DNA of 64,000 nucleotides from Myxococcota bacterium (GTDB lineage: Bacteria > Myxococcota_A > UBA9042 > PHBI01 > JBMYRH01), in the NCBI GenBank assembly GCA_049602155.1, contig JBMYRH010000009.1, forward strand, positions 95,391 through 159,390, written 5' to 3'. This document shows, piece by piece, positions 6,022 through 37,538 of the stretch. Under the pieces are notes generated by a model. That model searched no databases. It saw only the letters and a program-made list of their open reading frames with translations, and had not been told where the DNA came from. The stretch's first letter is position 1. Each line of letters opens with the position of its first letter. A program made the position numbers and the translations under genes.

Positions 6022-8274
<2,253 letters not shown>

Positions 8275-17200: not shown

Positions 17201-17761
17201 ATCGCGGCCTTTGTACGCTACGGTGGCAGCCATCAGATCGGCGGAGATGGTACGTCACTGCTCCCCGCCAACGAGATCTTCACGCTGGGGGGATCCAACG
17301 GTGTGCGAGGGTATACCGACCACGCCATCGGTCGCTATGACGCCGCTGGGCTCCTCGACCGTGGCTGGCTCGATGCGAACGGAAACCGCGTCGGCGCCAT
17401 CTACGATTATCGTCAAGATGGTGGCGGCAACGTGGTCCTCAACGGAAGCATGGAGGTTCGAATCCCGCTCGTGAAGCGAATTGGGCTCTGGGCGGCGACC
17501 TTTGTGGACGCAGGGGCGATCGCCCGAACGCACTCCGATATTCACCTTGAGAGCTTCCGTTTCTCCGCGGGCGCCGGCATTCGCTACCTCATCGGCAATC
17601 AGATCCCCGTGCGGCTCGACTGGGGGTTTGCGTTGGGCGACCCGCGCTGCACGGCTTGGTCCAGGACGGCGGACCTGTCCTCGGACACGCTCGCGGCGGA
17701 CGCCTGCGCCAAGGAAGAGGAGGGCAACCGCATTCACTTTGACCTGCTCTATCCGTTCTAG
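14255..17761 (+). CDS. Omp85-family outer-membrane protein (BamA/TamA-like) with extended N-terminal POTRA region.
   Basis: 1168 aa with a signal peptide (MSSALPILIALAAVAQSPA) and a Pro-rich linker. Repeated POTRA-like segments are followed by a C-terminal beta-barrel ending ...RIHFDLLYPF (terminal aromatic beta-signal). Confidence 0.75.
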   Translation: MSSALPILIALAAVAQSPAPSTAAPSLDPQPVEEAATEVKELPSLDEVAPTLEVTQPVEAAPPHPCVGTSLYSVRLAGCRGPVCDSGEMRAGFVTITDIEPGQTLSANDVSVAIARLEATGFFRSVALKCTRKGDQLALVVTVAPHRFVRKVSIRGNQFFRESELSKRVTLHSGDALNVEPGQESDSETLKRLVESLKALYYKEGLEDVRFDVKVALIDETTVDLSVEITEGERDRVRSLDIAHQPAVVTQRGAMKCPSVEPRKLSALVGVNVGEVVTERQLREMKRRLKNFFQSIGFERPDIEADIVGDPLVLRVRVKTNQCWLVRVWEREATSLSASRAEPAFRFRDPVDTDESFTDPAPYERSRLEPWRGLLPFYESGVFEREEALRGVEVIRAILASQGFLFADVRLEHRVLQTRDKRRNSVGASPVMGTIDYYLTRNYERRLQGLTFEGLESFEEEVLLSVMDTQMYDFLGDPGAIQIQKVLYDLTKVKRYYQERGFYAFRYALTGEPEQRSPRRVRRTEGDSVVWEYRFRDRGFRIRKRKGQMVLYLEIPLIEGPQTKATKINIFGAKSLPPILAKLLLEIETGGAYGKVMLESGLKRIKLWYSQRGYHQMKVFPTCKAYDPEPENGDCDPFNVRSGKVEMVYRIDEGPQSSVGEIFWRGNFRTDPEVLLRDLPQPGDPYRAEDIATAARKLRNLGVFNSVKITPIGIDETPARDEIALLVTVEEGRTRFIDLAVGFRTIDRDSDAGTKAPAWLGSIIGQATAASDRSTNGLARGRALGLPDVLLKVEAEYLEYNFLGLGWQFTLPVQYGFSTSDPLRLGSLTPTIRIPRPGGTDLETEIKLLAEIDRVNDQIDRTEFGLYSSLNWPLMDQMTLGFALDFGMICFKQPGDSNPICDLDEYSPQFRPSIRWRWDTQNNPLNPTKGFTLSGEFKYIFGRSSDELIGLETANDLGTEYANFLKWETSAEVVIDTRIGPIIAAFVRYGGSHQIGGDGTSLLPANEIFTLGGSNGVRGYTDHAIGRYDAAGLLDRGWLDANGNRVGAIYDYRQDGGGNVVLNGSMEVRIPLVKRIGLWAATFVDAGAIARTHSDIHLESFRFSAGAGIRYLIGNQIPVRLDWGFALGDPRCTAWSRTADLSSDTLAADACAKEEEGNRIHFDLLYPF

Positions 17762-20408: not shown

Positions 20409-23400
20409 TCAGGAGATCTTCTGACCCGTGAGGCCAAGGATGGCCTCATTGTCCGGCGTGCTGACCCACGTCTTCCGCTTCTCAGCGTCCTCGATCGTGC
20501 CGGCGATACTGCGGAGCGCGTCGACGGCTTGCAGCATCAACGCGTCTGCTGCCTGCTTCCGCCCCACGCCTCGCCTCGCCCGACTCAGGACGAAGAGCAG
20601 CTGATGGGTAAAGCGCGTCCAACCCGTCTTCCGTTGACCTAACTGAAGGGCGTCCTCTGCGAGCTGCAGTCCTTCGACAGGCTTCCCTGCCTTGATGAGC
20701 GCTTGAGAGCCGTAGGCAGAGGCGCGCGCAGCGCGACCAAACGCCTGGCGTCTCGTCGCTTGAATGACCAAAGAGTGCGCCTCTTTGGCCATCTTCGCCG
20801 CGACGGCCGCGGGGGCCTTCTGGAGGCTGAGGTTCATCAGCCCGAGGCGCGCGTCGGCCATCAGCATCCAATCAGGTGTGTCGCGCACGATCGCCGTGAC
20901 CCTCTGGAGTCGGTCAGCCGCCTCACCACGACGGCGCTCAAGCTGAAGGGCCGCGGCTTCGGCCAAGAGGGCCTGGCCCATGGCCACGGCGTCCGCGTCG
21001 CGCTCGCCGAGCTGGGCAGCTTGCTCCGCATGATCCCGGGCGGAGGCCGCCCAGCCGAAGTCGACATGGAGACGCGCGAGGTCAAGCTCGACACGAGAGG
21101 AGAGCCCGCGCACGTGGTCGGCTGGCAGCTCGATAGAGACCTCGATGAGCGCCTCTAGGGCGGCCTCTGGTCTCCCTGCCTGGACGAGCAAGCGCGCAGC
21201 TAAGATATCTGCGGTGAGTTCATGGTTGCGCTCTCCAGCTTGCTCTGCTGCGGTGCGGTACTCATCGACAGCTTGCTGAGCATCACGAGTCCACTCAAGC
21301 TCCGTTAAGATCTCCGCCAAGGCGCCCATCAGCCGCATCCATACTGCAGGCCGAGGACGTTCACCCTTGCGCGCGTCCTGGATCGCCTGAAGCGCGCCGG
21401 CCGTGTCACCTGTAGCATAAGCGCTCATGACGCGCGCCCAGCTCCGCAGACCGAGGGCATCCACACCGGGGCGACCAGGCTCAAGGGCGACGCGCGCCTC
21501 GGCCTGTCGCGCCATTCGTGTCCAATCCTTTTGCTCAAAGGAGGAGACCACCTGGGTCTCCAGAGCGAAGGCGAGGGTGGGCATATGGGCGGCCTCGGTG
21601 CCCACCTCGACGAGCGCTGCGCTGGCCTTGTCGAAGGCGTCGAGATCTCCCTCCTGCATCGCATGACGGACACGGGCCTTATAGAGCATCGCCCGCCATC
21701 GCCACGCTTCATCAGCCTCCTCGGGTCCAAGTTGCCGCTCGAGCAGCTCCTCCGCTTGATCGAGGAGCGCCGCGGAATGCGCTGCAGCGTCTGCGCCTCC
21801 GGACTCTGACGCGGCGACGACGAGGTGGGGGGCGGCGAGCACAGGCCGGTCGGAGAGGATGAGGTGATCGGCGACGAGCTTACGTTGGCCGTTGAAGCGC
21901 TCCTCAGCGTGGATAGCGCGGGCCAGCCGGCGGTGGAGCTGTTGACGCTCCCCGCTGGGCAGCGACTCATAGATGCCCTGCCGCCAGCGATCGTCACTGA
22001 CCAGCAGCATGCCGTCGCCTTGTGACGCTAAGACGCCATCGGTCAGCAGCGAAGGTACGTACTCGGCGTCGTCGTCGAAGTAGCGCTCAATGATGGTCTC
22101 AGGGAGCGCCTGCTGGAGGATCGCGAGGAGGGCGTCTAGACGCCCAATCTCGTCGCCGCTTGGTGCAGCCAGGGTCGCGTCGACACCCGCTTCCAAGACA
22201 TAGCCGCCGCCCACGCGCTTCAATGTGCCGCGTCGGAAGAGGTCGTGCATGACGGCGATGAGGCCCGCGGGGGCCCCCTTAGCGGACTCGTGGAGGCGCT
22301 TGAGCTGCTCGGGGCCGATGACCCCGCGACCTACGGTTCGCTCCATCCACAGCGCGGTTTGCTCTAAGCTGATGGGTTGAAGGGGGACGACCGTCGCCTC
22401 TTCCATCTTGATGAATTGTTCGAAGGCGTCTGGCGCCGTCGGCTCCTCGTCTGGGTTCACGCTGGCCATGACGCGCAGCTTCTCGTTTCTCGCTGCAGTG
22501 AGGGCAGCCTGTAACACCGCGATACTTGAGCGGTCGGCGCGCTGCAGGTCCTCGATCACCAAGAGCGTCGGGCCATGAAGCCGCGTCAGCATGGTCGCCG
22601 CACCACTGCAGCCTCGAAGCAGCTCCTCATTCTCGTCAGGGTTCTCTGCTTGTCGCAGCCTGCTGAAGATGTCGATGGCGGGCTTGAGGCATTCCAGTGG
22701 ACCTTCTGTGCCCGTGAACCGGAGGCGAATGACGCGCGATCCACCGACCGCGCCTCGGTCTGCGAGCTCATGGAGCAACCAAGAGGCGTCGTATCCGCCG
22801 GGCGCGCGCGCGACGAGCAGCCGGGGTCGGTCGGTCTCGATCGCCATGCCTGGCTTGAGCCAGGAGAGGCAGCTGTCGCCGGCCCCCAAGAAGTCATCAC
22901 GGCCTGGAAATGGGCTCGACTGCAGGTGCTTACCGAAGGCGCTCTCGGTCTCGATCAGCGGCGTCTGCTCTGTGGCCTCGCAAAGACGCACGAGCACCTC
23001 GTGGGCGTGCGATGGTCGGTTGTCTGGGTCGGGTGACAGCAGCTCATAGATGAGCGCCTCGACGCCTGGGGGGCAGTCCGGGTGGGAGATCTTCGGCGGC
23101 TGGTTCTTGAGGCGCGCTTTGAGGAGCTCGTTCTCGTCGCTCCCTGACCAGGGGCGCTTCCGCTCCACCAGCTCGTAGAGGACCAAACCGAACGCGTAGA
23201 GGTCAGAGCGCTGATCGAAGGGGTCGCCGGCGAGCATCTCGGGGGCACAGTACTCGGGCGTCCCGATGAAGAACCCCTCTGGGGCCTTACCCAATCGGGT
23301 AGCGACCCCGAGGTCGATCAGACGGCAGGCCCGGTCTCCCGTGTCTTGCATGTCGACGAGGACGTTGCCTGGCTTCAGATCTCGATGCAGCCACCCCATG

Positions 23401-23771
23401 CGATGGATGTAGTCGAGGGCGCGTAAGAGCTGTGTCATCCACGGCCAAGAGTCTTGAAGGCGCTTTACACGTCGGATCGCTAGGATCAGCGGGATTCCGC
23501 GACAGTACTCGAGTGAGAAGTAGGGCACCTCACCCCCGCGCGGGTGCTTGGCGAAGCCAAAGTCATGGACGCGCGGGATGTTGGGGTGGTCGAAGCCTCG
23601 CTGGGCGACGAACTCGTCGAGGAAGGTCCCAATGGAGTGGCGAAATTCGGGGAGCAATATCTTGATGGCGACGGGATCCGAGGCCTCAGCGAGGTCTCGC
23701 GCCAACAAGACACGCCCCATCCCACCCTCACCGAGGGTGCGCTGGAGTTGGTAACGACCGTCCCAAGTCAC
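20409..23771 (-). CDS. Ser/Thr protein kinase fused to an AAA/STAND-like NTPase and a TPR-like C-terminal region (1120 aa).
   Basis: Kinase motifs: GEGGMGRVLLA, VAIKIL, HRDLKPGNVLV, DLGVA, GTPEYCAPE. The ~700-aa Ala/Leu-rich C-terminal region is typical of the NTPase/TPR regions of myxobacterial kinases. The GTG start at 23771 overlaps the stop of the upstream HTH gene (GTGA). Confidence 0.85.
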   Translation of the reverse strand: MTWDGRYQLQRTLGEGGMGRVLLARDLAEASDPVAIKILLPEFRHSIGTFLDEFVAQRGFDHPNIPRVHDFGFAKHPRGGEVPYFSLEYCRGIPLILAIRRVKRLQDSWPWMTQLLRALDYIHRMGWLHRDLKPGNVLVDMQDTGDRACRLIDLGVATRLGKAPEGFFIGTPEYCAPEMLAGDPFDQRSDLYAFGLVLYELVERKRPWSGSDENELLKARLKNQPPKISHPDCPPGVEALIYELLSPDPDNRPSHAHEVLVRLCEATEQTPLIETESAFGKHLQSSPFPGRDDFLGAGDSCLSWLKPGMAIETDRPRLLVARAPGGYDASWLLHELADRGAVGGSRVIRLRFTGTEGPLECLKPAIDIFSRLRQAENPDENEELLRGCSGAATMLTRLHGPTLLVIEDLQRADRSSIAVLQAALTAARNEKLRVMASVNPDEEPTAPDAFEQFIKMEEATVVPLQPISLEQTALWMERTVGRGVIGPEQLKRLHESAKGAPAGLIAVMHDLFRRGTLKRVGGGYVLEAGVDATLAAPSGDEIGRLDALLAILQQALPETIIERYFDDDAEYVPSLLTDGVLASQGDGMLLVSDDRWRQGIYESLPSGERQQLHRRLARAIHAEERFNGQRKLVADHLILSDRPVLAAPHLVVAASESGGADAAAHSAALLDQAEELLERQLGPEEADEAWRWRAMLYKARVRHAMQEGDLDAFDKASAALVEVGTEAAHMPTLAFALETQVVSSFEQKDWTRMARQAEARVALEPGRPGVDALGLRSWARVMSAYATGDTAGALQAIQDARKGERPRPAVWMRLMGALAEILTELEWTRDAQQAVDEYRTAAEQAGERNHELTADILAARLLVQAGRPEAALEALIEVSIELPADHVRGLSSRVELDLARLHVDFGWAASARDHAEQAAQLGERDADAVAMGQALLAEAAALQLERRRGEAADRLQRVTAIVRDTPDWMLMADARLGLMNLSLQKAPAAVAAKMAKEAHSLVIQATRRQAFGRAARASAYGSQALIKAGKPVEGLQLAEDALQLGQRKTGWTRFTHQLLFVLSRARRGVGRKQAADALMLQAVDALRSIAGTIEDAEKRKTWVSTPDNEAILGLTGQKIS

Positions 23772-24604
23772 GCCTCAGCACCTCCCATGGTCGCTGAGAG
23801 CCACAAAGGGACGACGGTCCGGGCATCTCGAGAGAGCTGAGTCTTGAGTCGGGCCGCTGTGGGGGCACCGCGGGCCACCTCGTACAGGTACGTCACAGAC
23901 CAGGGGCCGTTTCCAGGTGTGACTGCGATCATCGCCCCGCTCGCCCTTGCGCGCTTGAGTTGCTTGGGCGTGGGTGGGCTTGAGGAGTGATCGCCGGGCA
24001 CTTGAACGCTGAATTCGATCGCGTCGGAGGTGACGGAGAGGGCGACTCGGGGGCGATCGAGGAATCCAGGGGCTCCTTCACCCTCTGCCCACGTCATCGT
24101 GACGTGGTCGATAGACTTCATATGGGCTTCGAGCCGCCACGCAGACGTCCTGTTGGCCTCGGACGGAGAAGGATGCAATCGGTCGTTAGAGAGGCGCACC
24201 AACGTGGGGTGGAGCGCGTCCCCTAACGCAGCGAGGCCATCCCTCACTTGCTGGCGAAACAGGTTGTGCGTGGGATCGGCCGCGTGATGCCCAAGGGACA
24301 TCAAAGCGTCGCGGCTCACGAAGGGCGTCTCATCATCGTTCGCTGGCAAGATCACCGTCTCTGCGCTGTCGAACGCGACCCTCTCCTCGGGCTCAGCGAC
24401 CGCTTTGATGGGCGCGACGACGGGGGTTGGGATGAGGAGCGGACCCTGAGCGCTCAGCCAAGTGAGCACATCCTGGCTGATGAACCGCACCTGATCGGCG
24501 ATCACCACCCGTGGCATATCAGTCTCCTGAATCAGGCGAGCCAGGAGAGGTGGGTCGATTTGAAGGAGCTTCGCCAACTCCACGTCGGTCAACACCGGTG
24601 CCAT
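23768..24604 (-). CDS. Hypothetical protein with N-terminal excisionase/MerR-like HTH; co-transcribed with the kinase.
   Basis: 278 aa. The N-terminus LTDVELAKLLQIDPPLLARLIQETDMPRVVIADQVRF resembles an HTH_17/excisionase-like DNA-binding helix. There is a 4-nt overlap with the kinase start. Confidence 0.55.
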   Translation of the reverse strand: MAPVLTDVELAKLLQIDPPLLARLIQETDMPRVVIADQVRFISQDVLTWLSAQGPLLIPTPVVAPIKAVAEPEERVAFDSAETVILPANDDETPFVSRDALMSLGHHAADPTHNLFRQQVRDGLAALGDALHPTLVRLSNDRLHPSPSEANRTSAWRLEAHMKSIDHVTMTWAEGEGAPGFLDRPRVALSVTSDAIEFSVQVPGDHSSSPPTPKQLKRARASGAMIAVTPGNGPWSVTYLYEVARGAPTAARLKTQLSRDARTVVPLWLSATMGGAEA

Positions 24605-24702
24605 GGCCTGGAGTCTAGCCCGACCAGAGGGCTCTGCCTAGGTCCCCTTGGGACCATTTTTACGATCGCGCGGTCGTGTCGACCCAAGACGGGTTGGTTT
24701 GC

Positions 24703-26229
24703 TCAGCGCGTGCGCGACCTGCGCATCTGCTTTCCAGCTTTTGGTGCTGCCTTCTCTTTGCTCTTTTTCTTCGCCTTTTGGGGGATCACGTTGACGGACG
24801 GAGGGGCAGGTGCCCGCCTGGTGACTGGACGCTTGGGTACAGCTGTCCGTGTCCGTTTAGGGGTCACCCGTCGCGATCGGGTCGCCGGTGGTGCCACGAT
24901 TTTACGTGTCGTCGTTCGTGGACGCACGGCGGGCCGTGTCGGGCGCGTCGTGCGGGTCGCTTTGGGTCGTGGCGCGGGTCTCGGCGCTGGGCGCTGGGCG
25001 GCAGGTCGCCGTGGTGCTGCGCGTCGCGCTGCTGGCCGCTCCGGCGCTGCACTGCGGCGCCGTTGAGCAGCAGGAGGCTCGCGTGTGGGACGTGACTGAC
25101 CGCTGGGGCGTGCATCTCTCCGACGCTCTGGAGGTTGAGCGTAGCGTGGGTTTGTCGCAGGGAGTGGGCGTCGAGGTTCAGCACGTCGGGTCTCTTCCTC
25201 TTCGTCGTCGCCTCTGTCTTCGGGGCGATACGGCTTGGCCGTCTCGGACCACAGGTGTGTGGCTGCCTCCTCGGTCTTTTTGGGCTTCACGACGACGGTC
25301 GGCGTCGCAGGGCTGTGGCCCTTCGGCTTCACGACGACGGTCGGGGTACTGGATGCCTCGGCATATCGCGCGGCGCGGGTGCGTGTGTGATGGTGAACAT
25401 GACCGTGGCCGTGCGCGTGGTGGTAGTGGGCGTAGTGTCCGTAGAGCAAATGCCCAGGTCGATGCCACGTCCCAGCGACCCAATGGCCTGGGAGCCAGCG
25501 ATGGCCGTCCCAACAGCCGGGGGCCCAGGAGTAACCATGGCGGTGTGCGGGCCGCCAATAGCCCAGCCCCCATACGTAGTTCGTGGCGTAACCGGGGACC
25601 CAAATGAAGCCTGATCGGCGCGTGATTGGTGACCAGTAGCCGCCGTACCAGACGCCGTCTGCGTAGTAGCCGTTGACCCAGGCGTAGCCGTCCATGCTCG
25701 AGGGTCGCCAAAACCCAATCCGCCAAAGGCGCTGTGGGCCCAGGACGTGACCGGGGACCCAGACGGACTCGATCCGGTCGGTCGTGGGGCGCCAGTGACC
25801 TGAGATCCACGCACCGTCATCATCGTAATAGCCGTCGATCCACTCGAAGCCTTCGGCAACCTCGACGCGCCAGAAGCCCTGGACCCACACGCCATCATCG
25901 GCGCGGTGACCGCGCACCCACCGGTAGGTCTCACCGTCTTGAGGCGCCTCGGGGATCCACTGACCGGGGACGTTGAGTCCGTAGTCGTCGACATGAGGTG
26001 GGATCCAACGCTCATCGGGGCGCTCAGGTTCCCTGTAAAACCCCTGAATCCACGTCTCGTCTGCCGCGCGATGTCCAGGGACCCAGACCCACCCATCCGC
26101 TTCGGCTGCAGCGGCGTCAGAGCTATGTGTGATGGACGCGGGCGCTTGCGCATACGCCGGAACAGAGGCGGCACATATGAGCGCCGTCAGCGCGGCTGCG
26201 AGGGTGTGGTTGATTGAAGGGCTGGGCAT
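24703..26229 (-). CDS. Secreted YXWGXW-repeat protein with His-rich tract and basic Pro/Arg/Lys-rich C-terminal tail.
   Basis: Signal peptide MPSPSINHTLAAALTALICAASVPAYAQA, with AGGAG 6 nt upstream of ATG 26229. About 12 Trp/Gly repeats (WVPGHRA, WVRGHRADDGVWVQGFW, GYWSP, GYWRP, WLPGHWVAGTW). His tract HYAHYHHAHGHGHVHHH. The ~170-aa C-terminal tail is rich in R/P/K/T/A. Confidence 0.7.
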   Translation of the reverse strand: MPSPSINHTLAAALTALICAASVPAYAQAPASITHSSDAAAAEADGWVWVPGHRAADETWIQGFYREPERPDERWIPPHVDDYGLNVPGQWIPEAPQDGETYRWVRGHRADDGVWVQGFWRVEVAEGFEWIDGYYDDDGAWISGHWRPTTDRIESVWVPGHVLGPQRLWRIGFWRPSSMDGYAWVNGYYADGVWYGGYWSPITRRSGFIWVPGYATNYVWGLGYWRPAHRHGYSWAPGCWDGHRWLPGHWVAGTWHRPGHLLYGHYAHYHHAHGHGHVHHHTRTRAARYAEASSTPTVVVKPKGHSPATPTVVVKPKKTEEAATHLWSETAKPYRPEDRGDDEEEETRRAEPRRPLPATNPRYAQPPERRRDARPSGQSRPTREPPAAQRRRSAAPERPAARRAAPRRPAAQRPAPRPAPRPKATRTTRPTRPAVRPRTTTRKIVAPPATRSRRVTPKRTRTAVPKRPVTRRAPAPPSVNVIPQKAKKKSKEKAAPKAGKQMRRSRTR

Positions 26230-26404
26230 TGGAGCTCCTAGGTCGCGGGCGTCTGAGAACTCAGACGATGGCCCCCGCGATTTATTCAACGCGCCCTGCA
26301 AGCATGTCGACCCGCGGGTCTCCAGGCAAGACAAAGGCCCCGAAGCTAGGCGCGTGATGGCCAGCCTCGGAGCCCTTGTGGAGACTCACGATCGCGTCGG
26401 TCCG

Positions 26405-29400
26405 CTAGGGAGCGACGACGTGGATATTACCGACCATCATCGGGTGGAACTGACAACGGTAGTTGTAGTAGCCCTCGGTCGCCATGGTGACGGTCACGTT
26501 GCTCGTCGCACCGTCCTGCGCGTCGAAGATCGTGTCCTCAGCACACAGCAACTCGAAGGGATGACCCCCAGAGGCCTCGATGGTCACCGTTTGACCGACC
26601 GCGACGCGTAAGCATTTGGTCGAGTACGGAGAGCCTGCGCCCATGATCGCGACATCGATCGTCCCCTCCATGGCGGTCATATCACCAGCGACGAAGTCCT
26701 CCTCTGTGCAGTCCGCGTAGTCCGCCTCGCAGGCGAACGCGGGCGCGTCCGCCTCACAGACGCCTGCGTTGCAGCTCTCGCCGTCACCGCAAGTGCCACA
26801 GTCGATGGTGCCGCCGCAGCCGTCGGTCTCGGTGCCACAGGTGACGCCGTCGGAGCAGGCGATGGCCGGGGTGCAGTCCGCCTCACAGACGCCCGCGTTG
26901 CAGCTCTCGCCGTCTCCGCAGGTGCCACAGTTGACGGTGCCGCCGCAGCCGTCGTCCATGGTGCCGCAGACCATGCCCTCGGTGCACTCGGTGGCCGGGG
27001 TGCACGTCTCACACGCGCCGCATGTCCCTACACCGTCCGCGAAGCACACAGGCCCCACATCAACGGTCACGCCGCTGTTGACGTCGTCGGCGCCGACCTC
27101 GAAGAAGTAGTTGTTGTTCTCGGTGTCGAAGCTGCACTCGTCGGGTGCGCTGGAGATCACAGACCATGCACCGATGGTGGGCTTCCATTGCCAGGTCTTC
27201 GGTGAGAGGTACTGAGTGAAGCTGTAGATGCCGTCCATATCGGTGTCAGTGCCCGTGTTTGAGCAGGAGCCACACCATTCGTTGAACTCTCCTTGGAAGT
27301 TAGGTGCAGCGCTCGCATCGTAGCTGTTCATGTCGACGTGGAGCTCAACGTGAGCCCAACCGCAGACAGTGGACTCGCCACACTCCCACCATGCGCTTGT
27401 TGCCGTACAGGCCTCGCCATCGAAGCAACCCATGCAATCGCTGGGGCAACCGTTGGCGGCGAACGTCGGCTCATCGCTGACGCATGCACCGTCGGTGCAG
27501 GTCTCACCCTCGCCACAGGCGGGGTCGCACGCCACGGGAGCTTCACAGGCGCCGCAGGTGCCGAAGCCGTCTGCGAAGCACACAGGGCCGACCGCGACAA
27601 CCTCGCCGCTGTTGACGTCGTCTTCGGTGACCTCGAAGAAGTAGTTGCTGTCCTCAGCGTTGAACCGACACCCCTCAGGTGCGCTGGAGATCACAGTCCA
27701 CGATCCGATGCTCGGCTTCCACTGCCAGGTCTTGGGTGAGAGGTACTGCGTGAAGCTGTAGACGCCGTCCATGTCGTCGTCAGTGCCCGTATTGAAGCAG
27801 TCACCGCACCAGTCGTTGAACTCACCCTGGAAGTTGGGCGCAGCGTTCATGTCGTAGTTGTTCATGTCGACGTGGAGCTCGACCTGAGCCCAGCCGCAGA
27901 CAGTGGACTCACCGCAGGTCCACCACTCGTCGGTGGTCGTGCAGGTCGCGCCGTCGTAGCAGCCTTGGCAATCGGTGGGGCAGCCGTTCGCGGCCATGGG
28001 GGTCTCATCCGCCATGCACATGCCCGCGGTGCAGGTCTCGCCGTCGGCGCAGGTGCCGCACTCAAGGGTGCCACCACAGCCGTCGTCCATAGTGCCGCAG
28101 TTCATCGCGCCGCAATCAGCAGCAGGAGTGCATTCTGCGGTGCACATGCCCTCGGAGCAGGTCTCACCGTCGGCGCAAGTGCCGCACTCAATGGTGCCGC
28201 CGCAGCCGTCATCCATGGTGCCGCAGTTCATGGCCTCACCGCACTCGGTCGCTGGCTCGCAAGGATCGCTGCACGCGCCATCGACACAAAGCTGACCGTT
28301 CTCGGAGCAGTCCGTGGTCACGGCGGTGAACTCGCCACAGTCGTCCGCATCCTCATTACAGGACGCGTCGTATTCGGTGAGGATGTCGCCATCACAGGTC
28401 GCCGCTTGCTCACAGAGCGTCGCGGTCATCTCGTGGCCACAACCGTCGGCGTCACAGGTGGGGGCGTAGGTCCGGACCTCGGCCAAGCCGTTGGCTCCGA
28501 CGCACTCGCTGGCCTTCGGGACGTCGCAGTCCTCCACGTCGCTCGTGGTGTACTCACATGCGGTGCCCTCGGCGTTACAGGCGCCGGTGGCCTCGTACGC
28601 CACGATCATCAAGCCCATGCAGCCGTTCGCTTTCGCGTCCGAGCAGAGGCTGATGGTCTCGTCTTGGCCGCACACTCCGTCATCACAGGAGGGGGCGTAG
28701 GTCCAGGTCTGGGCTGCGACGGTGGTCGTGCACAGACCGTCGGTGCAGACCGCATCATCGTCGGCGCAGGGCGTGTCGTCGTCACAGGCGTCGCCCGTGA
28801 GTGAGGTCACGCATGCATCGTCTTGGGCGATATCGCAGTCCGTCGTAGCCTCTTCGTAGCTGCAGGGATCCGAGTCGTCCTCGGTCTCGGCGCAGACGCC
28901 AACTTGGGCGTAGGTCGTCGCCATCAGCCCATCGCAGCTGTCTGCGGGGGGCGCTTCACAAGCGACAGGGGTGTCGACACAGGCGCCAGTGGCGGTCTCG
29001 CAAGCTGAGGTGACGCAGTCGCCAGCGCTCGCGGCGCAGTCGACCTCGCTGTTCGGGACAGGCTTGCACTCACCGGTCTCTTCACCGACGAACTTCTGGC
29101 ATGACCAGATGCCGTTGCACATGTCGCCGTCGTCCAGGGACGCGCAGTCCTCTTCGGTGGTGCAGGCGGCGCAAGGCTCACCGTTACCTGGCTTACATGT
29201 GCCGTTTTGGCAGTAGTCGCCGTCGTTCTCGCAGTCTGCGCCGGGGGCGCAGCCTGTGCAGGGATCGCCGTCATCGCAGGCGAGGTAGTTCTCGACCGGA
29301 GTCAACTCGCACGCGCCCGTGCCTGGGTTGCACGCATTCGTGCGGCATCCACCGTTGTCGGAGCCCTCGGAGCAGGTGACCTCGCTGTCGGCCACTGGGG

Positions 29401-30085
29401 CGCAACTGCCCTCGACACAGCCCCAGAGTCCGTTGCAAAGGTCACCATCGTCGTAGATGGCGCACTCTGCGTCGGTCGAGCATGTGCAGATGTCACCGTC
29501 TTCGGTGACGCCGTTGATCTCTGCCCCTGCGCACGCGCCCTCGGCGCAGACATCGCCGCTCGTGCAGGGGTTGCCGTCGTCGCACACGGCTGCGTTCGCC
29601 GTGTTTGCACAGTCGCCAGTCTCGGCGTCGCAGGTGTCGTCAGTGCAGGGGTTGTCGTCGTCGCAGAGCACCGTCGACACGTCCACACAGAGGCCGCTCG
29701 CGCACTCGCCAATCGTGCACGCCGTCCAGTTCTCCTCGTTGCACGGCGTCCCGTCATCGGACGTCCGCACGACACATTGGCCACTGTCATTGCAGTAGCC
29801 GCCTTCGCAGGTCCCTGCGTCGGGGTGGTCGCATGAGGCCCATGTGCTGCGGGTCTGCTTCACGCAGGTGCCTGCATCACAGACTGCGTCCTCGCACGGC
29901 GTCAGGTCTGAGAAGGTGTCAGCGCACTCGGCGTCATACCCACACTCATGGTCTGGCGTCGGGATGTCCGTCGTGGCCGTCGAGCCAGCATCGGTCGTGG
30001 TGTCGATACCGCCGTCGTCGCTGCAAGCGATGAGCGCTGAGAAGCCAACGAGGATGGCGAGGGTAAAGATTCTGTTGGGCGTCAT
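26405..30085 (-). CDS. Giant Cys-rich multidomain lipoprotein (~1226 aa) with two CBM20/48-like modules and a C-terminal cupredoxin (amicyanin/pseudoazurin-like blue-copper) domain.
   Basis: ATG at 30085 with GGAGGT 9 nt upstream. Lipoprotein signal MTPNRIFTLAILVGFSALIACSDDGG. The N-terminal ~550 aa are myxo-type Cys-rich repeats (CDDDNPCTDDTCD, CDDGNPCTSGDVC, CDDGDPCTGC). There are four CGTMDDGCGGTxECGTCxDGExC modules and two ~145-aa modules with GEFNDWCG...DGVYSFTQYLSPKTWQWKPSIGSW (CBM20/48-like). The C-terminus ...IEASGGHPFEL...EGYYNYRCQFHPMMVGNIHVVAP fits the Y-x-Y-x-C-x-x-H-P-x-M type-1 copper signature. Confidence 0.8.
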   Translation of the reverse strand: MTPNRIFTLAILVGFSALIACSDDGGIDTTTDAGSTATTDIPTPDHECGYDAECADTFSDLTPCEDAVCDAGTCVKQTRSTWASCDHPDAGTCEGGYCNDSGQCVVRTSDDGTPCNEENWTACTIGECASGLCVDVSTVLCDDDNPCTDDTCDAETGDCANTANAAVCDDGNPCTSGDVCAEGACAGAEINGVTEDGDICTCSTDAECAIYDDGDLCNGLWGCVEGSCAPVADSEVTCSEGSDNGGCRTNACNPGTGACELTPVENYLACDDGDPCTGCAPGADCENDGDYCQNGTCKPGNGEPCAACTTEEDCASLDDGDMCNGIWSCQKFVGEETGECKPVPNSEVDCAASAGDCVTSACETATGACVDTPVACEAPPADSCDGLMATTYAQVGVCAETEDDSDPCSYEEATTDCDIAQDDACVTSLTGDACDDDTPCADDDAVCTDGLCTTTVAAQTWTYAPSCDDGVCGQDETISLCSDAKANGCMGLMIVAYEATGACNAEGTACEYTTSDVEDCDVPKASECVGANGLAEVRTYAPTCDADGCGHEMTATLCEQAATCDGDILTEYDASCNEDADDCGEFTAVTTDCSENGQLCVDGACSDPCEPATECGEAMNCGTMDDGCGGTIECGTCADGETCSEGMCTAECTPAADCGAMNCGTMDDGCGGTLECGTCADGETCTAGMCMADETPMAANGCPTDCQGCYDGATCTTTDEWWTCGESTVCGWAQVELHVDMNNYDMNAAPNFQGEFNDWCGDCFNTGTDDDMDGVYSFTQYLSPKTWQWKPSIGSWTVISSAPEGCRFNAEDSNYFFEVTEDDVNSGEVVAVGPVCFADGFGTCGACEAPVACDPACGEGETCTDGACVSDEPTFAANGCPSDCMGCFDGEACTATSAWWECGESTVCGWAHVELHVDMNSYDASAAPNFQGEFNEWCGSCSNTGTDTDMDGIYSFTQYLSPKTWQWKPTIGAWSVISSAPDECSFDTENNNYFFEVGADDVNSGVTVDVGPVCFADGVGTCGACETCTPATECTEGMVCGTMDDGCGGTVNCGTCGDGESCNAGVCEADCTPAIACSDGVTCGTETDGCGGTIDCGTCGDGESCNAGVCEADAPAFACEADYADCTEEDFVAGDMTAMEGTIDVAIMGAGSPYSTKCLRVAVGQTVTIEASGGHPFELLCAEDTIFDAQDGATSNVTVTMATEGYYNYRCQFHPMMVGNIHVVAP
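27000..28080. repeat. Intragenic tandem duplication, 2 copies of ~537 bp at ~85% identity, encoding the two CBM-like modules.
   Basis: Nearly identical stretches. Copy 1 (27181..): gcttccattgccaggtcttcggtgagaggtactgagtgaagctgtagatgccgtccat. Copy 2 (27711..): gcttccactgccaggtcttgggtgagaggtactgcgtgaagctgtagacgccgtccat. Similar antisense ORFs 26769..27110 and 27369..27644 in the track reflect the same repeat. Confidence 0.7.
28080..28300. repeat. Intragenic short tandem module (2 x ~117 bp) encoding CGTMDDGCGGTxECGTCADGETC. A second pair lies at about 26690..27000.
   Basis: Antisense ORF 27975..28295 shows two internal copies of VSPSAQVPHSxVPPQPSSxVPQF, and 26769..27110 shows two copies of LSPSPQVPQ..VPPQPS. 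The protein has four near-identical GC/GT Cys modules. Confidence 0.5.
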
Positions 30086-30298
30086 GAGGGCCGACCTCCG
30101 TGATTTGGGCCGCGTCACAGTATCCGAAGGTTGTGCCCGGGACAACAAGCGCCTGACACCCAATGGTCACTTGTCGTGATTCTGTGCCCGATATCATCAT
30201 AAGTGCTTGTTTACGCTGGTGAATAAAGTTTGGCAATGTGGGTTCGGATCGCCGTACTTCGGTGCCTCAGCAGAGTGATAAAAGAGGCACGACCGCCG

Positions 30299-32608
30299 TC
30301 AGGGGGCCAAGTAGGGGATCCACCGGAGGGGTAGCGGCACCGCAGTGCGGCCCTGCCAATCGAGGCGCTCGATGACCCCAGCCTTCTCTTTGCCGACCCG
30401 AAGGTGTTGGCTCGGGGCCTTGGGCCGAGCGCCTTTGAGGGCCTTCTTCGAGGGCGGCGCCGGGCGCCAGAACCCGAGCTCGTAGCGGACGCGATCTCGC
30501 CACGCGTTCAGCCCCGAGTAGACCCTGACCACGATCAGGCGGCCCTTTTTCCAGGTCCCTTCGGCGCTCAACGTCCTCGCGTTCATCGGCATCTTGGCCT
30601 CTGGTCCATCTTCGTTGAGGGGACGAGAGAGGCGGTTCAAAAAGGGGCGCCATCCCGCGCCAGGGTCGCGGCGGACCTCGAAGACGGCCTCAATCACTTC
30701 ACCATCGCGGTGCATGCTGTGGATGCGGTAGCCGTGGAGTGAGAGCTTCCCACCATAGCGCAGCGCTGGATCGAGGACGGTGCCCAGGGGGGCGAGCCAA
30801 GAGGCGACCTCCGCAGGGGTTTCATTCAGTTGAACCGCCAAGTTGTGGGCTGCGGCGTGCTGCCGGAGGGTCTCTGGTGGCGGGGCGCCCTCGCGGCGGC
30901 TCTCGGCCTGACTCTCATGCCCGGTCGCGAGCAACATCTCTGCTTCGAGCCAGGGGTCTCTCACCAGCGTTTGAGGCGGGTAGACGTGGCTTACGAGCCA
31001 GCGGTGCATCAGGTCGGCGGGCTCAGACTTGAGCCGGAGCCAAGTCACGTCTGGGGTGCTCACGGTCTCCCGCAGATCGATCACCAAGAAGTCCTCGATC
31101 ACGGTCACGGGGTGTTGGCTCATCGCGTCCGTCTGGAGCGCAGGGATCGCGAGCTGGGGGGCGCTCCTGAGGTCCACAACCGCCATCGCAGATCGCGCGA
31201 CGTTCTTTAACACCTTCGTACGCTCTGTGACCTTGATGCGGCGGAACCTTCGGTCCAAGTAGAAGGCAAACTGGAACTTCGCAGTGAGCATCTCATCGTG
31301 GACCGCGATCTGGTCGTCAGGGGTCGTCTGCGTGTGGATCCAGCGCGCCACCACGGCGTGACGTCGTCGGTAGTCTTCACCCTCTTTGGGGGCTGGATCG
31401 GCGAAGCGTGTGCGGTAGTGCGTCCCCGCGATCCCCGACGCACCCTGTAAGAGGATCAAGCCGGTGGCCACCGAGAGGGTGATCGCTCTGGACCACCTTG
31501 GGCCAGGGCGCCACTGAGCCGCGCGCCGAGCCACCTCTGTGAGGGCCACGATCACGTCGGCCCCGGCGATCACGAAGTACACGGCCGCGAACATGGGCCA
31601 GAAGTCGTGGACCCACGCCCCCTGCCTGAAGATCACGACCCACGCAGTCCCCAGCCCCAAGAACGCGAGCGCCGCGTTGTGCTTCATCCCCCATCGCCCC
31701 TCCTTCGCGTCTCGCCGGGCGATCCATGGCCAGAAGAGACCCGCCAGGACCAGGGTAGGGGTCATGAGGTCGACCCATCGAGGCCCTTGGCGGCTCAAGA
31801 CATGAGCCACAGTCTTGCCCTTGCCGTTTTGACGAAAGCGCCCGACGTCTCGAAAGGCTTGGATGAAGTCGTCGCCGCCGTAGAGCTCAGAGAGGTGCCA
31901 CAGGACACCGAAGAAGCCGATGAGTACGGCGGCACAGAAGGGCGCGATCCAGCCCCACTCGATGCGCCGCCGCTTCAGCATGGGGACCGCGACTGTGCAG
32001 GCCAGCCAGAAGGCGAAGACAAACCAAGGCCAGTCTGACCAGGCCCCCAAGATCGCCACCCCTGCGCTCGCTGCGACCCACCTGCGTTGATGCGTCTCAC
32101 ACCACCGCATCCACGTCCAAAGGCTCGCTAGGCAGAAGAGCAGCACCAGGGCCTCTTGATTCACGAAGGGACCGTAGTAGGCGAGCATCGGTGTGGTGAT
32201 GAAGAGGATCATGGCCGCCCAGCGGCCCGGCCCGGAGGGCCACCATCTGCGCGCCATATCCGCGAAGAGTAGGAAGCCTAAGAGCATCAAGATCGCGGGG
32301 ACGAGCCGCGCTTGCCATTCACCGACACCGAAGACGCTGAACGAGGCACCTACGAGCAGGTGAATGCCCACCGGGTGATGCCAGTAGTGCTTAAACTCAT
32401 CTGGCTTGGCCCTTGGGTCGAGGTTCTCGACCGGGCCGTACTTCGCCTTCTCAAACCCGTGCCGCACGAAATTGCGGGCGGCGACGGCGCGTCGCGCGGC
32501 GCACCAACCTTTGTGGCCAAAGAGGAACTCTTCATTCACGCTCTGGAGGTTCACCGCCACAGAGAGGGCGAGGCAGAGGCCCAAGCCGATGCGGTGAAGC
32601 CGTGTCAC
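30299..32608 (-). CDS. Polytopic membrane protein, putative GT-C-fold (PMT/ArnT-like) glycosyltransferase with ~300-aa C-terminal soluble domain.
   Basis: GTG start 32608 immediately after the rlmD stop (32605-32607); the longer track start at 32812 would overlap rlmD by 200 nt. At least 10 hydrophobic helices in the first ~450 aa (LGLCLALSVAVNL, LVPAILMLLGFLLFADM, AAMILFITTPMLAYYGPF, LVLLFCLASLWTWM, ...). The function call is by architecture only. Confidence 0.55.
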   Translation of the reverse strand: MTRLHRIGLGLCLALSVAVNLQSVNEEFLFGHKGWCAARRAVAARNFVRHGFEKAKYGPVENLDPRAKPDEFKHYWHHPVGIHLLVGASFSVFGVGEWQARLVPAILMLLGFLLFADMARRWWPSGPGRWAAMILFITTPMLAYYGPFVNQEALVLLFCLASLWTWMRWCETHQRRWVAASAGVAILGAWSDWPWFVFAFWLACTVAVPMLKRRRIEWGWIAPFCAAVLIGFFGVLWHLSELYGGDDFIQAFRDVGRFRQNGKGKTVAHVLSRQGPRWVDLMTPTLVLAGLFWPWIARRDAKEGRWGMKHNAALAFLGLGTAWVVIFRQGAWVHDFWPMFAAVYFVIAGADVIVALTEVARRAAQWRPGPRWSRAITLSVATGLILLQGASGIAGTHYRTRFADPAPKEGEDYRRRHAVVARWIHTQTTPDDQIAVHDEMLTAKFQFAFYLDRRFRRIKVTERTKVLKNVARSAMAVVDLRSAPQLAIPALQTDAMSQHPVTVIEDFLVIDLRETVSTPDVTWLRLKSEPADLMHRWLVSHVYPPQTLVRDPWLEAEMLLATGHESQAESRREGAPPPETLRQHAAAHNLAVQLNETPAEVASWLAPLGTVLDPALRYGGKLSLHGYRIHSMHRDGEVIEAVFEVRRDPGAGWRPFLNRLSRPLNEDGPEAKMPMNARTLSAEGTWKKGRLIVVRVYSGLNAWRDRVRYELGFWRPAPPSKKALKGARPKAPSQHLRVGKEKAGVIERLDWQGRTAVPLPLRWIPYLAP

Positions 32609-33981
32609 TGCGCAGCTCGGCGCAGGGCCACCCCGACCTCCACGTGTGGGGTGTGGGGGAACATGTCGAAGGTCGCGACGTCGGTGATGACGAACCCAGC
32701 GTCGATCAAGCGCTTGAGATCCCGGCTCAGGCTTCTTGATTCGCATGAGGCGTAGATCACCGTGACCTCGCCTTTCAGCGCCGTGATCGCGTCGATGACA
32801 GCCGGCGCGCACCCTGCGCGAGGGGGATCTAGGATGACCGCGTCCGCCCCCTCGGCGAGGACGCGTGGGGCGGCTGTCGCGGCGTCCTCGGTGATGGCGG
32901 TGACTGCGGAGGCCTCAAGCAGCTCGATGTTCCGCATCGAGTCCTCGGAGGCGAGCGGGTGACTCTCGATGAGGGTCACTCGGTCGGCGCGCGCGCGGCT
33001 CGCGAGCCCTAAGACGCCGGCGCCGGCGTAGAGATCGACCAGGTGTGTCATCCGCTCAGGGAGCCACTGCCCCAGGGTCGTCACCATGGCCTCTGCCATG
33101 TCATGTCGCGTCTGTATAAAAGAGGTCGGCCCCACCTGGAGGTTGAGATCGCCGTAGGAGACGCTCTGCCGCCGCTTGCCTCGCAGATGGACGTTCCGTT
33201 CGCCGAGCATCGGCCCAGAGCCCTTGGGGTTGATGTTGGCGTGGACGCCGCAGACCCCCTCGATCCGGATCAACTGTTGAGCGGCCTGAGCGACCTTGGG
33301 GCCCGGCTTGACCGAGAGGATGAGGGTCAGGATCCCCTCCTCGCGGCCCGGATCGACCCGATACAGGAACCCACGGATCACCCCAGGGCGCTCTTCACTT
33401 CGCCATGTCGGCCAGTCAAGCCGTGCCAAGATGTGGTGAGCGTGCTTGAGGACGCTGTTGACCCGTCGATGTTGAATGACGCAGCTGTCGACCGGGACCA
33501 AGTCCTGGGTCCCCGGCGCATAAAACCCCATCCGCATGGATCCACCGCGATGCCGAAGCACCATGAGCGCACGGGTGCGGTACCCGAGGCTGTACTCCGG
33601 ACCAATCCACCCATGATGCCGGGTCGCGTCGTCGCAAAGGGGCGCCAAGAGCTCCTTCACCTGAGTGGCTCGAACCTCTCTCTGCAGCGACATCGAGGCG
33701 GGCTGCCAGGGGCATCCACCGCAGCTCGTGACGACCGGGCAGGGCGCCTCGACCCGATATTTAGAGGGCTCAGTCAGCGTCTGAATTTGCCCCACGTTGA
33801 TGTGCTTGCCCGTGTGCGTAATACGCAGCTGAGCGGAGTCGCCAGGCACGCCGCCTAGGACGCGCACCTCAGCGTCTCCGACCCGCGCCAGTGAGCCACC
33901 ACGTCGCTCGAGCGACGTGATGGTGGCCTCCACCAAGTCACCTTGATTGAAGGGTCGCTTACGCCGAGGTGACTTGGCCAT
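32605..33981 (-). CDS. rlmD: 23S rRNA (uracil-C5)-methyltransferase RlmD/RumA-like (TRAM plus 4Fe-4S plus SAM methyltransferase).
   Basis: The internal ATG (MAKSPRRKRPFNQGDLVEATITSLERRG) is chosen. TRAM-like N-terminus, Cys cluster CPVVTSCGGCPW, SAM-MTase motifs DLYAGAGVLG and ILDPPRAG, and C-terminal VIYASCES. Confidence 0.85.
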   Translation of the reverse strand: MAKSPRRKRPFNQGDLVEATITSLERRGGSLARVGDAEVRVLGGVPGDSAQLRITHTGKHINVGQIQTLTEPSKYRVEAPCPVVTSCGGCPWQPASMSLQREVRATQVKELLAPLCDDATRHHGWIGPEYSLGYRTRALMVLRHRGGSMRMGFYAPGTQDLVPVDSCVIQHRRVNSVLKHAHHILARLDWPTWRSEERPGVIRGFLYRVDPGREEGILTLILSVKPGPKVAQAAQQLIRIEGVCGVHANINPKGSGPMLGERNVHLRGKRRQSVSYGDLNLQVGPTSFIQTRHDMAEAMVTTLGQWLPERMTHLVDLYAGAGVLGLASRARADRVTLIESHPLASEDSMRNIELLEASAVTAITEDAATAAPRVLAEGADAVILDPPRAGCAPAVIDAITALKGEVTVIYASCESRSLSRDLKRLIDAGFVITDVATFDMFPHTPHVEVGVALRRAAQ

Positions 33982-33983
33982 GA

Positions 33984-37538
<3,555 letters not shown>

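Follow-up and report, generated by a model that had tools for sequence, protein, structure and literature searches.

A predicted exported Trp/Gly hairpin-repeat protein from Myxococcota, with a His/Tyr segment and a polycationic tail

Repeats of the WXXGXW/YXWGXW type are catalogued in Pfam as PF12779 ('WXXGXW repeat (2 copies)', called YXWGXW repeat by some annotations), yet they have neither an assigned function nor a solved structure, and a 2021 survey placed the family among those repeat families that lack a known structure (PMC8078820). Our search of the literature for WXXGXW, YXWGXW and PF12779 returned only this repeat-modeling survey and unrelated plant papers, with no function for the family. 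Another exported protein with small repeats is BcpO, a small outer-membrane lipoprotein of the Burkholderia bcpAIOB loci of contact-dependent growth inhibition, which comprises 73-74 aa, carries a lipobox and is encoded in a two-partner secretion operon (PMC3415462). Here we describe a gene for a Trp/Gly-repeat protein from a Myxococcota bacterium. The window analyzed is a stretch of 64,000 nt of contig JBMYRH010000009.1, and the gene lies at 24703-26229 on its minus strand. The open reading frame (ORF) begins with ATG at 26229-26227, ends with the stop codon TGA at 24705-24703 and encodes 508 aa. No second copy of the gene is found within the window.

We propose that this is an exported hairpin-repeat protein with a His/Tyr segment and a polycationic tail that acts as a binder or tether in the cell envelope. 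Taken as a whole, description together with mechanism, the proposal is tentative. The descriptive part, comprising the ORF, the signal peptide, the PF12779-related domain, the His/Tyr segment and the basic tail, is highly probable, and the mechanistic part on its own, envelope binding or tethering, is rather doubtful. After Sec-dependent export the protein would function in the periplasm or at the surface. By analogy, the aromatic-rich array of hairpins might form the surface that binds a specific ligand, an envelope glycan or a partner protein being the likeliest, and the His/Tyr segment might coordinate a divalent metal ion. The tail would adhere by charge to peptidoglycan carboxylates, to the head groups of phospholipids or lipopolysaccharide, to exopolysaccharide (EPS) or to extracellular DNA (eDNA).

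The Trp/Gly β-hairpin repeat domain, built from diverged WXXGXW repeats, spans residues 45-258 (25456-26097, minus strand). It contains 25 of the 26 tryptophan residues of the protein, so that Trp makes up 11.5% of its sequence, with a further 14% Gly. It is divided into eight units of ~26 aa that follow the pattern G-[FY]-x-W-[VI]-x-G-[HY] ... D-G-x-W-x-x-G-[FHY]-W-R-P. The strict motif W..G.W occurs eight times, compared with 0.38 ± 0.6 (maximum 4) in 5000 composition-preserving shuffles, and the looser motif W..G[HYFW] is found 13 times where the shuffles give an expectation of 0.9. Because the count of strict motifs so far exceeds that in the shuffles, the repeats are not a by-product of composition, and the Trp/Gly repeats noted in the original prediction are borne out.

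The original prediction had also assigned these repeats to the YXWGXW family and had suggested a search with PF12779. Taken literally that search is negative, since neither the full-length protein nor a 219-aa repeat domain gives a match to the Pfam model even at E ≤ 10; this is probably caused by composition or bias filtering. When the repeat units are isolated, however, three of them score 18.0, 17.5 and 16.6 bits (E 0.003-0.008) against the 26 positions of the PF12779 hidden Markov model (HMM), at or just below its curated gathering cut-off of 18 bits, and the isolated units match no other repeat family. The closest ortholog (P0001; homologous proteins are designated P and loci L), whose domain is 65% identical, passes the cut-off with 22.1 bits at the site equivalent to residues 232-253. 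With a profile of the domain built from six sequences, an exhaustive search of 1.84 billion representatives retrieved 330 proteins at E ≤ 1e-3, of which 43 reach E ≤ 1e-30. PF12779 is matched by 42 of the 148 profile relatives that were scanned (best E 1.2e-13), and no other family is recurrent among them. Such PF12779-positive proteins are retrieved by the domain profile at E values of 1e-18 to 1e-24; P0066, for example, has a profile E of 7e-24 and scores 31.9 bits with PF12779. NCBIfam gives no match to the full-length protein at E ≤ 10. The assignment to the family is therefore right in substance but indirect: it stands for the closest ortholog and the wider set of relatives, is borderline for the isolated units, and finds no direct match of the whole protein. 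We conclude that there is good support from sequence comparison for a divergent branch of the uncharacterized family PF12779.

We modeled the protein with AlphaFold2 (AF2). Using an alignment of six sequences, residues 45-250 are predicted with a local confidence score (pLDDT) of ~75-90, and the score falls below 50 from residue 255 onwards. When the domain alone was modeled with 16 sequences the pLDDT was 87.4, with a predicted template modeling score (pTM) of 0.71. The model contains only short strands of 2-4 residues, with a strand, a two-residue turn and a second strand at each W-x-x-G-x-W. This suggests that in each motif a tight x-G turn is flanked by a pair of Trp side chains. The models thus lend good support to a predicted rigid, all-β array of eight double-hairpin units in the N-terminal half of the protein. 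Structure searches of the PDB with the domain model found no match, and a sequence profile of the domain compared with all PDB chains gave nothing.

The N-terminus carries a putative signal for export. A Shine-Dalgarno sequence AGGAG (26235-26239, minus strand), seen by direct reading of the sequence, lies 5 nt upstream of the ATG. The reading frame remains open 5' of this codon as far as a TTG at 26334, but the ATG at 26229 is favored because of the position of AGGAG and because the homologs begin at the equivalent position. Residues 1-28 (26146-26229, including the start codon) resemble a Sec-type signal peptide with an AxA site, MPSPSINHTLAAALTALICAASVPAYA being followed directly by QA. Cleavage between AYA and QA, a site of the SPase-I type, is predicted from the -3/-1 rule. 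The signal stretch is the sole hydrophobic segment of the protein, the highest-scoring 19-residue Kyte-Doolittle window beginning at residue 9 with a score of 1.68. Four homologs (P0001-P0004) start at the same position in the alignment and have similar signal peptides. The ribosome-binding site and signal peptide of the original prediction are therefore both present, and a single 508-aa pre-protein exported through a Sec signal peptide is well supported by these sequence features. The periplasmic placement that had been claimed fares less well. The conserved signal peptide speaks for export, and from it we infer a location that could be the periplasm, the surface or the medium.

We considered whether the protein might carry other sorting signals. 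It has no lipobox and is not a lipoprotein. PEP-CTERM and MYXO-CTERM signals came into consideration as many of the tails end in RR or RRRR; these were rejected, since the residues before the basic end do not form a hydrophobic segment.

The C-terminal part of the protein is a polycationic tail rich in Pro, Arg, Ala, Thr and Lys, delimited by composition and charge to residues 368-508 (24706-25128, minus strand) and predicted with pLDDT <50. Over the last 169 aa there is 24% Arg, 19% Pro, 16% Ala and 7% Lys, with a net charge of +40 and an isoelectric point (pI) of ~12, so the very basic Pro/Arg/Lys tail that had been noted is confirmed. The models and the composition together give good support to a C-terminal half that is a probable intrinsically disordered polycation.

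Is such a tail genuinely translated? The gene might instead end after the repeat domain or His tract, leaving the tail as a chance-open, untranslated frame, and a frameshift dividing the Trp-repeat part from the tail had been raised in the original prediction. As GC-rich DNA gives rise to long chance ORFs, we examined the GC content by codon position. In the gene itself the third-position value (GC3) is weaker in the tail, at 0.55-0.62 compared with 0.73 in the domain, and many spurious ORFs overlap this stretch, as would be expected of an annotation artifact. The orthologs indicate otherwise. The frame continues from domain into tail with no stop codon for 150-357 codons in at least nine independent orthologs (L004, L005, L007, L009, L010, L011, L016, L017 and L019). 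In the high-GC orthologs L007, L009, L010 and L016 the in-frame GC3 of the tail is 0.87-0.97, level with the 0.93-1.00 of the repeat domain, and is therefore a frame-specific coding signal. An in-frame 42-nt duplication and conserved linker motifs in the protein also point to a translated tail; P0001 and P0002 both preserve the amino-acid motifs PTV[IV]VKPK, H[IL]WSETA[QK]P and RPLPATNPRY, and basic character is retained in every ortholog. The artifact explanation is effectively refuted. Domain and tail form one ORF, and, to the extent that sequence permits a judgment, a split gene or frameshift is excluded.

The tails of the orthologs comprise 150-357 aa with few hydrophobic residues, and carry net charges from +11 to +88. 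Their pI is ~12 in nine of ten cases, and 10.6 in L016. The sequence of the tail is not conserved between orthologs, and the tails carry lineage-specific tandem peptide repeats, including RRTYKRPSKPS (L007), RPTRSTRPATS (L008) and ERRVERPARQP (L009). In L008 the RPTRSTRPATS repeats at ~9100-9300 run into a stretch of Ns; because the assembly breaks within the repetitive tail, its reading beyond the gap is unreliable. Charge and disorder are kept while the sequence diverges, which indicates that selection in the tail probably acts on bulk charge and disorder and not on sequence. Given the pI of ~12 and the predicted disorder, the tail could plausibly bind polyanions.

The DNA encoding the tail had been described as highly repetitive, and this had been offered as the reason for the overlapping ORFs. 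Neither statement survives. Tandem Repeats Finder detects just four marginal arrays of 18-42 nt in the tail DNA (scores 30-38), and the only clear direct repeat, of 26 nt, is located in the linker and not in the tail. The tail DNA is compositionally biased and not truly repetitive. Overlapping ORFs of this kind are what DNA of 63% GC commonly yields when it is rich in the CGN, CCN and GCN codons for Arg, Pro and Ala, and they do not stem from repeats.

The composition of the tail might suggest a pro-protein involved in antimicrobial action or predation, from which the Pro/Arg-rich tail (RPAPRPAPRPKATRTTRP...) would be cut off to act in the manner of proline-rich cationic antimicrobial peptides. 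The high content of Arg and Pro in a PRP-type spacing, and the presence of a subtilase gene 8 kb away, would be in keeping with this, as would the host lineage, many Myxococcota being predators. Yet the PRP spacing is not conserved; the tails of the orthologs are RS-, RG-, RE- or KT-rich with unrelated repeats. Neither processing sites nor an export route are evident, and the likeness to antimicrobial peptides is one of composition. We regard this explanation as very improbable.

Between the repeat domain and the tail lie two further elements. The first is a His/Tyr/Arg segment, YGHYAHYHHAHGHGHVHHHTRTRAARYAE, at residues 263-291 (25357-25443, minus strand), which is conserved in orthologs. It includes the tract HYAHYHHAHGHGHVHHH at residues 265-281, in which ten of the 17 residues are His, and a terminal ...RY[AV] motif. 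The confidence of the AF2 model is low over this segment. In the orthologs the segment immediately following the repeats conforms to [HY]YAxYHHxHGHxY ... VRxVRY[VA], with H, Y and R interchanging. The pattern is kept in L004, L005, L007, L009, L010, L011, L012, L013, L017 and L019; examples are GHYAYYHHHHGHHYY...VRRVRYVAY in L007, GYYAHYHWTHGHNHRYHHRHVRSVRYVAE in L009, SYYANYHHRHGHRYTHRHKRVRKVRYNV in L017 and AHYAYYHHRYGHGYDRRHSVVHKVRYAS in L019. Because of this recurrence the polyhistidine tract that had been pointed out previously is a lineage-conserved motif and not random low complexity. P0003 has lost the His tract, retaining only ...RAARYAE, with the rest of the protein preserved. The second element is the linker, residues 292-367 (25129-25356, minus strand), which contains motifs that align with those of the closest orthologs: TPTVVVKPK (twice), HLWSETAKP, an acidic patch DDEEEE, and RPLPATNPRY. 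The two copies of TPTVVVKPK are encoded by the 26-nt direct repeat at 25280-25305 and 25322-25347, spaced by 42 nt and in frame. P0001 and P0002, which are 48-53% identical to the protein, have the same His tract, the three linker motifs in the forms given above and a basic tail, all within one ORF.

The richness in His led us to consider a periplasmic buffer or chaperone for Cu, Ni or Zn, with the His/Tyr tract as its core, working with the lipoprotein encoded upstream. Both the ten His residues and the conservation of the His/Tyr pattern would fit such a role. The upstream gene (26405-30163, minus strand) encodes a lipoprotein of 1252 aa with a lipobox LIAC and many Cys-rich modules. Its last 151 aa marginally pass the cut-off of PF00127 (Copper-bind; 21.5 bits compared with 21.2) and contain the C-x2-H-x2-M signature of type-1 copper sites. 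A cupredoxin neighbor is also found in L004, and partially in L005. This association is not general, however. The cupredoxin part lies beside the ortholog only in L004, the closest relative, the L005 locus being cut off, and in L007 only the Cys-rich N-terminal part is present. In L001/L016, L009, L010 and L011 the upstream genes encode DUF4920-type and other lipoproteins instead, yet the His/Tyr segment is mostly retained. The survey of homologs for co-occurrence with cupredoxins that had been proposed is thus essentially negative. Furthermore, P0003 has dispensed with the tract while keeping the remaining protein, and metal buffering leaves a repeat domain of 210 aa and a polycation of 150-357 aa without explanation. 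We therefore consider a dedicated metal buffer unlikely.

Two near-duplicate blocks of ~250 aa are also present in the upstream lipoprotein, with a weak X25/CBM-like match.

The architecture is unusual. Only five homologs were recovered when 5.8 billion proteins were searched by word index, and a scan of one genome per species gave 47 loci; fewer than a dozen orthologs were found. As far as these searches show, it is confined to uncultured Myxococcota/'Deltaproteobacteria' and a few other metagenome-assembled genomes (MAGs). In L010 (~7677-8000) and L011 (~7791-8000) the signal peptide is separated from the repeat domain by an additional acidic stretch of low complexity, with repeats of DDGQG/QYDDGQG in the former and YEDDGE in the latter.

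In the wider family the C-terminal region is more varied. Tails of 40 aa or longer are basic in 39 of 68 proteins. Many members are short (~130-180 aa) and have no tail, and a subgroup of 22 among 153 representatives have acidic C-terminal tails that end in a motif P-L-A-[LI]-P-V, which might act as a short linear motif or in sorting. Proteins with such PLA[LI]PV tails include P0028, P0050-52, P0057, P0063/64, P0069, P0076/77, P0083/84/86/87/89, P0093/94, P0112 and P0120 along with others. A second type of paralog occurs in many of the same MAGs (L014, L018, L036, P0004, P0022 and P0033). It has the same hairpin domain with a tail of ERRGERMQ-type Arg/Glu repeats, whose sequence suggests a single charged helix or a coiled coil. 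L018 and L036, which are of this paralog type, have flanking methyltransferase-like and lipoprotein genes in common; no informative theme emerges from the neighborhoods of this type.

The strong charge of the tail raises the possibility of a 'histone-like' glue of the extracellular matrix that condenses nucleic acid, in which the tail binds eDNA or acidic EPS and the array self-associates or attaches to the cell surface. A pI of ~12, charges of +11 to +88, predicted disorder and the conservation of charge rather than sequence are all consistent with this. The repeat domain is net acidic (-10 to -30) in most orthologs, which would permit head-to-tail electrostatic association. Against the glue, complementarity of charge between an acidic domain and a basic tail was considered as a rule for the whole family, and was rejected on the survey of tails described above. 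Nor is there a secretion-system gene or a sorting signal beside the gene, or any sign of passage beyond the inner membrane. This explanation too is an improbable one.

Downstream of the repeat protein are two genes on the same strand. The first (23768-24604) starts 98 nt after the stop codon, and encodes a cytoplasmic protein of 278 aa with a weak N-terminal match to the helix-turn-helix (HTH) family HTH_17 (17.4 bits, below the cut-off); its C-terminal 210 aa match no Pfam family. The second (20409-23771) encodes a cytoplasmic Ser/Thr kinase of 1120 aa with a Pkinase domain (E 1.8e-40), a weak AAA_16 match and a long, helical C-terminal region. Its GTG start codon overlaps the stop codon of the HTH gene by 4 nt (GTGA). 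Searches with PADLOC gave nothing for the repeat protein or the HTH protein, and only generic kinase-domain matches for the kinase. No transmembrane (TM) segments were detected in either the HTH protein or the kinase.

This order of genes could mean that the repeat protein belongs to a signaling module with the HTH_17 protein and kinase, as a regulated output or a reporter of the state of the envelope. Repeat protein, HTH_17 and kinase follow each other on one strand with short gaps in the window, and this order recurs in eight loci (L001/L016, L004, L005, L007, L009, L010 and L011) in which the upstream genes differ. The kinases are 32-88% identical across the syntenic Myxococcota MAG loci, and only 32-50% identical in the distant ones, and the overlap of the HTH and kinase genes is a further point of support. 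As both proteins are cytoplasmic, lacking any TM segment, a direct physical link with the exported protein is not expected. The window and L001 additionally have HD and Omp85/TamB genes further along in common, giving a shared backbone TamB-Omp85 ... HD ... kinase-HTH-repeat protein, and therefore the synteny is in part inherited. Moreover, the orthologs in L008 and L019 are present without the HTH-kinase pair, and the 98-nt gap that separates the repeat-protein gene from the HTH gene contains a hairpin. The pair may be co-regulated with the repeat protein; membership of a signaling module seems to us an unlikely reading.

The hairpin in the gap is a perfect, GC-rich stem of 6 bp (GGTCCC-CTT-GGGACC, 24641-24655). 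It was rejected as an intrinsic terminator for the minus-strand genes, since its T-run lies on the plus strand.

Other genes in the window were also observed. At 9852-17761 on the plus strand a TAM-like pair is formed by a TamB-like gene (1467 aa) and, immediately after it, a POTRA/Omp85 gene (1168 aa), and an Omp85 gene is likewise present in the syntenic region of L001. At 30299-37538 on the minus strand there are genes for a PMT_2 (ArnT-like) glycosyltransferase of 837 aa, a U5-type RNA methyltransferase of 480 aa and a subtilase of 1184 aa that contains FG-GAP repeats. Their functions concern the envelope or secretion, and no link to the repeat protein is apparent.

We return to the proposal of an exported envelope binder or tether, against which several observations must be set. 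The n-region of the signal peptide contains no Lys or Arg, and under the positive-inside rule a tail of ~+46 would suit the cytoplasm just as well, should export fail. PF12779, itself a family without an assigned function or structure, does not detect the full-length protein. Structure searches recovered no carbohydrate-binding or cell-wall-binding fold, and therefore the idea of glycan binding draws on composition and analogy. The loss of the His tract in P0003 weighs on the predicted role of that segment in binding metal. Lastly, other subfamilies have acidic tails ending in PLA[LI]PV or have none, so the repeat domain does not depend on the polycation. Nothing applicable was found in the literature on periplasmic cationic disordered regions. 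The metal-buffer, eDNA/EPS-glue and HTH-kinase-output explanations each overlap with the envelope proposal. A bolder combination, in which a natural, concatenated 'Trp-zipper' array whose β-repeat fold lacks any solved counterpart, a conserved His/Tyr metal clasp and a disordered polycationic brush make up an undescribed class of Myxococcota envelope 'glue' that tethers or condenses peptidoglycan, EPS or eDNA, perhaps under the control of the HTH-kinase pair, is a speculation that we think unlikely to hold in full.

The protein is an architectural variant that is new within a known but uncharacterized repeat family, and with its orthologs it makes a small, coherent subfamily; it is a well-described hypothetical protein and not a new system. 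It is nonetheless a good entry point to these repeats, with a confidently modeled domain that has no match in the PDB, an exported tail of 150-357 aa whose charge is kept, and a conserved His/Tyr motif. It offers a plausible route to a first structure and a first ligand for WXXGXW repeats, and a test case for highly charged disordered regions outside the cytoplasm of diderm bacteria.

How does the protein compare with systems already described? Like BcpO it would be an exported protein with small repeats, but identity with BcpO was rejected. The NCBIfam model for BcpO, NF037971, gives no match at E ≤ 10, the protein has 508 aa with no lipobox, and there are no neighbors of CdiA/TpsB type; among the 148 relatives just five match NF037971, weakly (best E 0.0013). 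The tail has a composition rich in Pro and Arg/Lys that is also found in the periplasmic (KP)n spacer of TonB, the KPAA tails of AlgP-type proteins and the proline-rich antimicrobial peptides. VVVKPK in the linker recalls the KP stretch of TonB; a TonB-like spacer was rejected, there being no TonB_C or other Pfam domain and no N-terminal membrane anchor. AlgP-type proteins are cytoplasmic, unlike the predicted location here, and the antimicrobial peptides differ in that the PRP spacing of the tail is not kept by the orthologs.

Further parallels are in the hairpins. In Gram-positive bacteria, the Trp-rich choline-binding repeats (CW_binding_1, PF01473) and those of the GW/ChW type, which bind cell wall or glycans, are likewise exported, aromatic- and Gly-rich β-hairpin repeats of ~20-26 aa. 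The relationship to these is a functional analogy only; we find neither an HMM match to PF01473-like cell-wall-binding hairpin repeats nor a likeness to solved β-hairpin solenoids. In the designed tryptophan-zipper hairpins (WTW-turn-WTW) two Trp residues flank a tight two-residue turn, which we take to be reminiscent of the x-G motifs. The zippers are synthetic peptides of 12-16 residues, whereas the hairpins predicted here occur naturally, follow one another 16 times and pack into a domain. With PF12779 the protein shares W-x-x-G-x-W, which comes as tandem pairs with G-[FY]-x ahead of them, and an N-terminal signal peptide. The protein departs from that family in the length and regularity of its array, eight double units of ~26 aa, many with Tyr, His or Phe in place of the second Trp, and in adding to it the conserved His/Tyr segment and a polycationic, probably disordered tail of ~140-250 aa.

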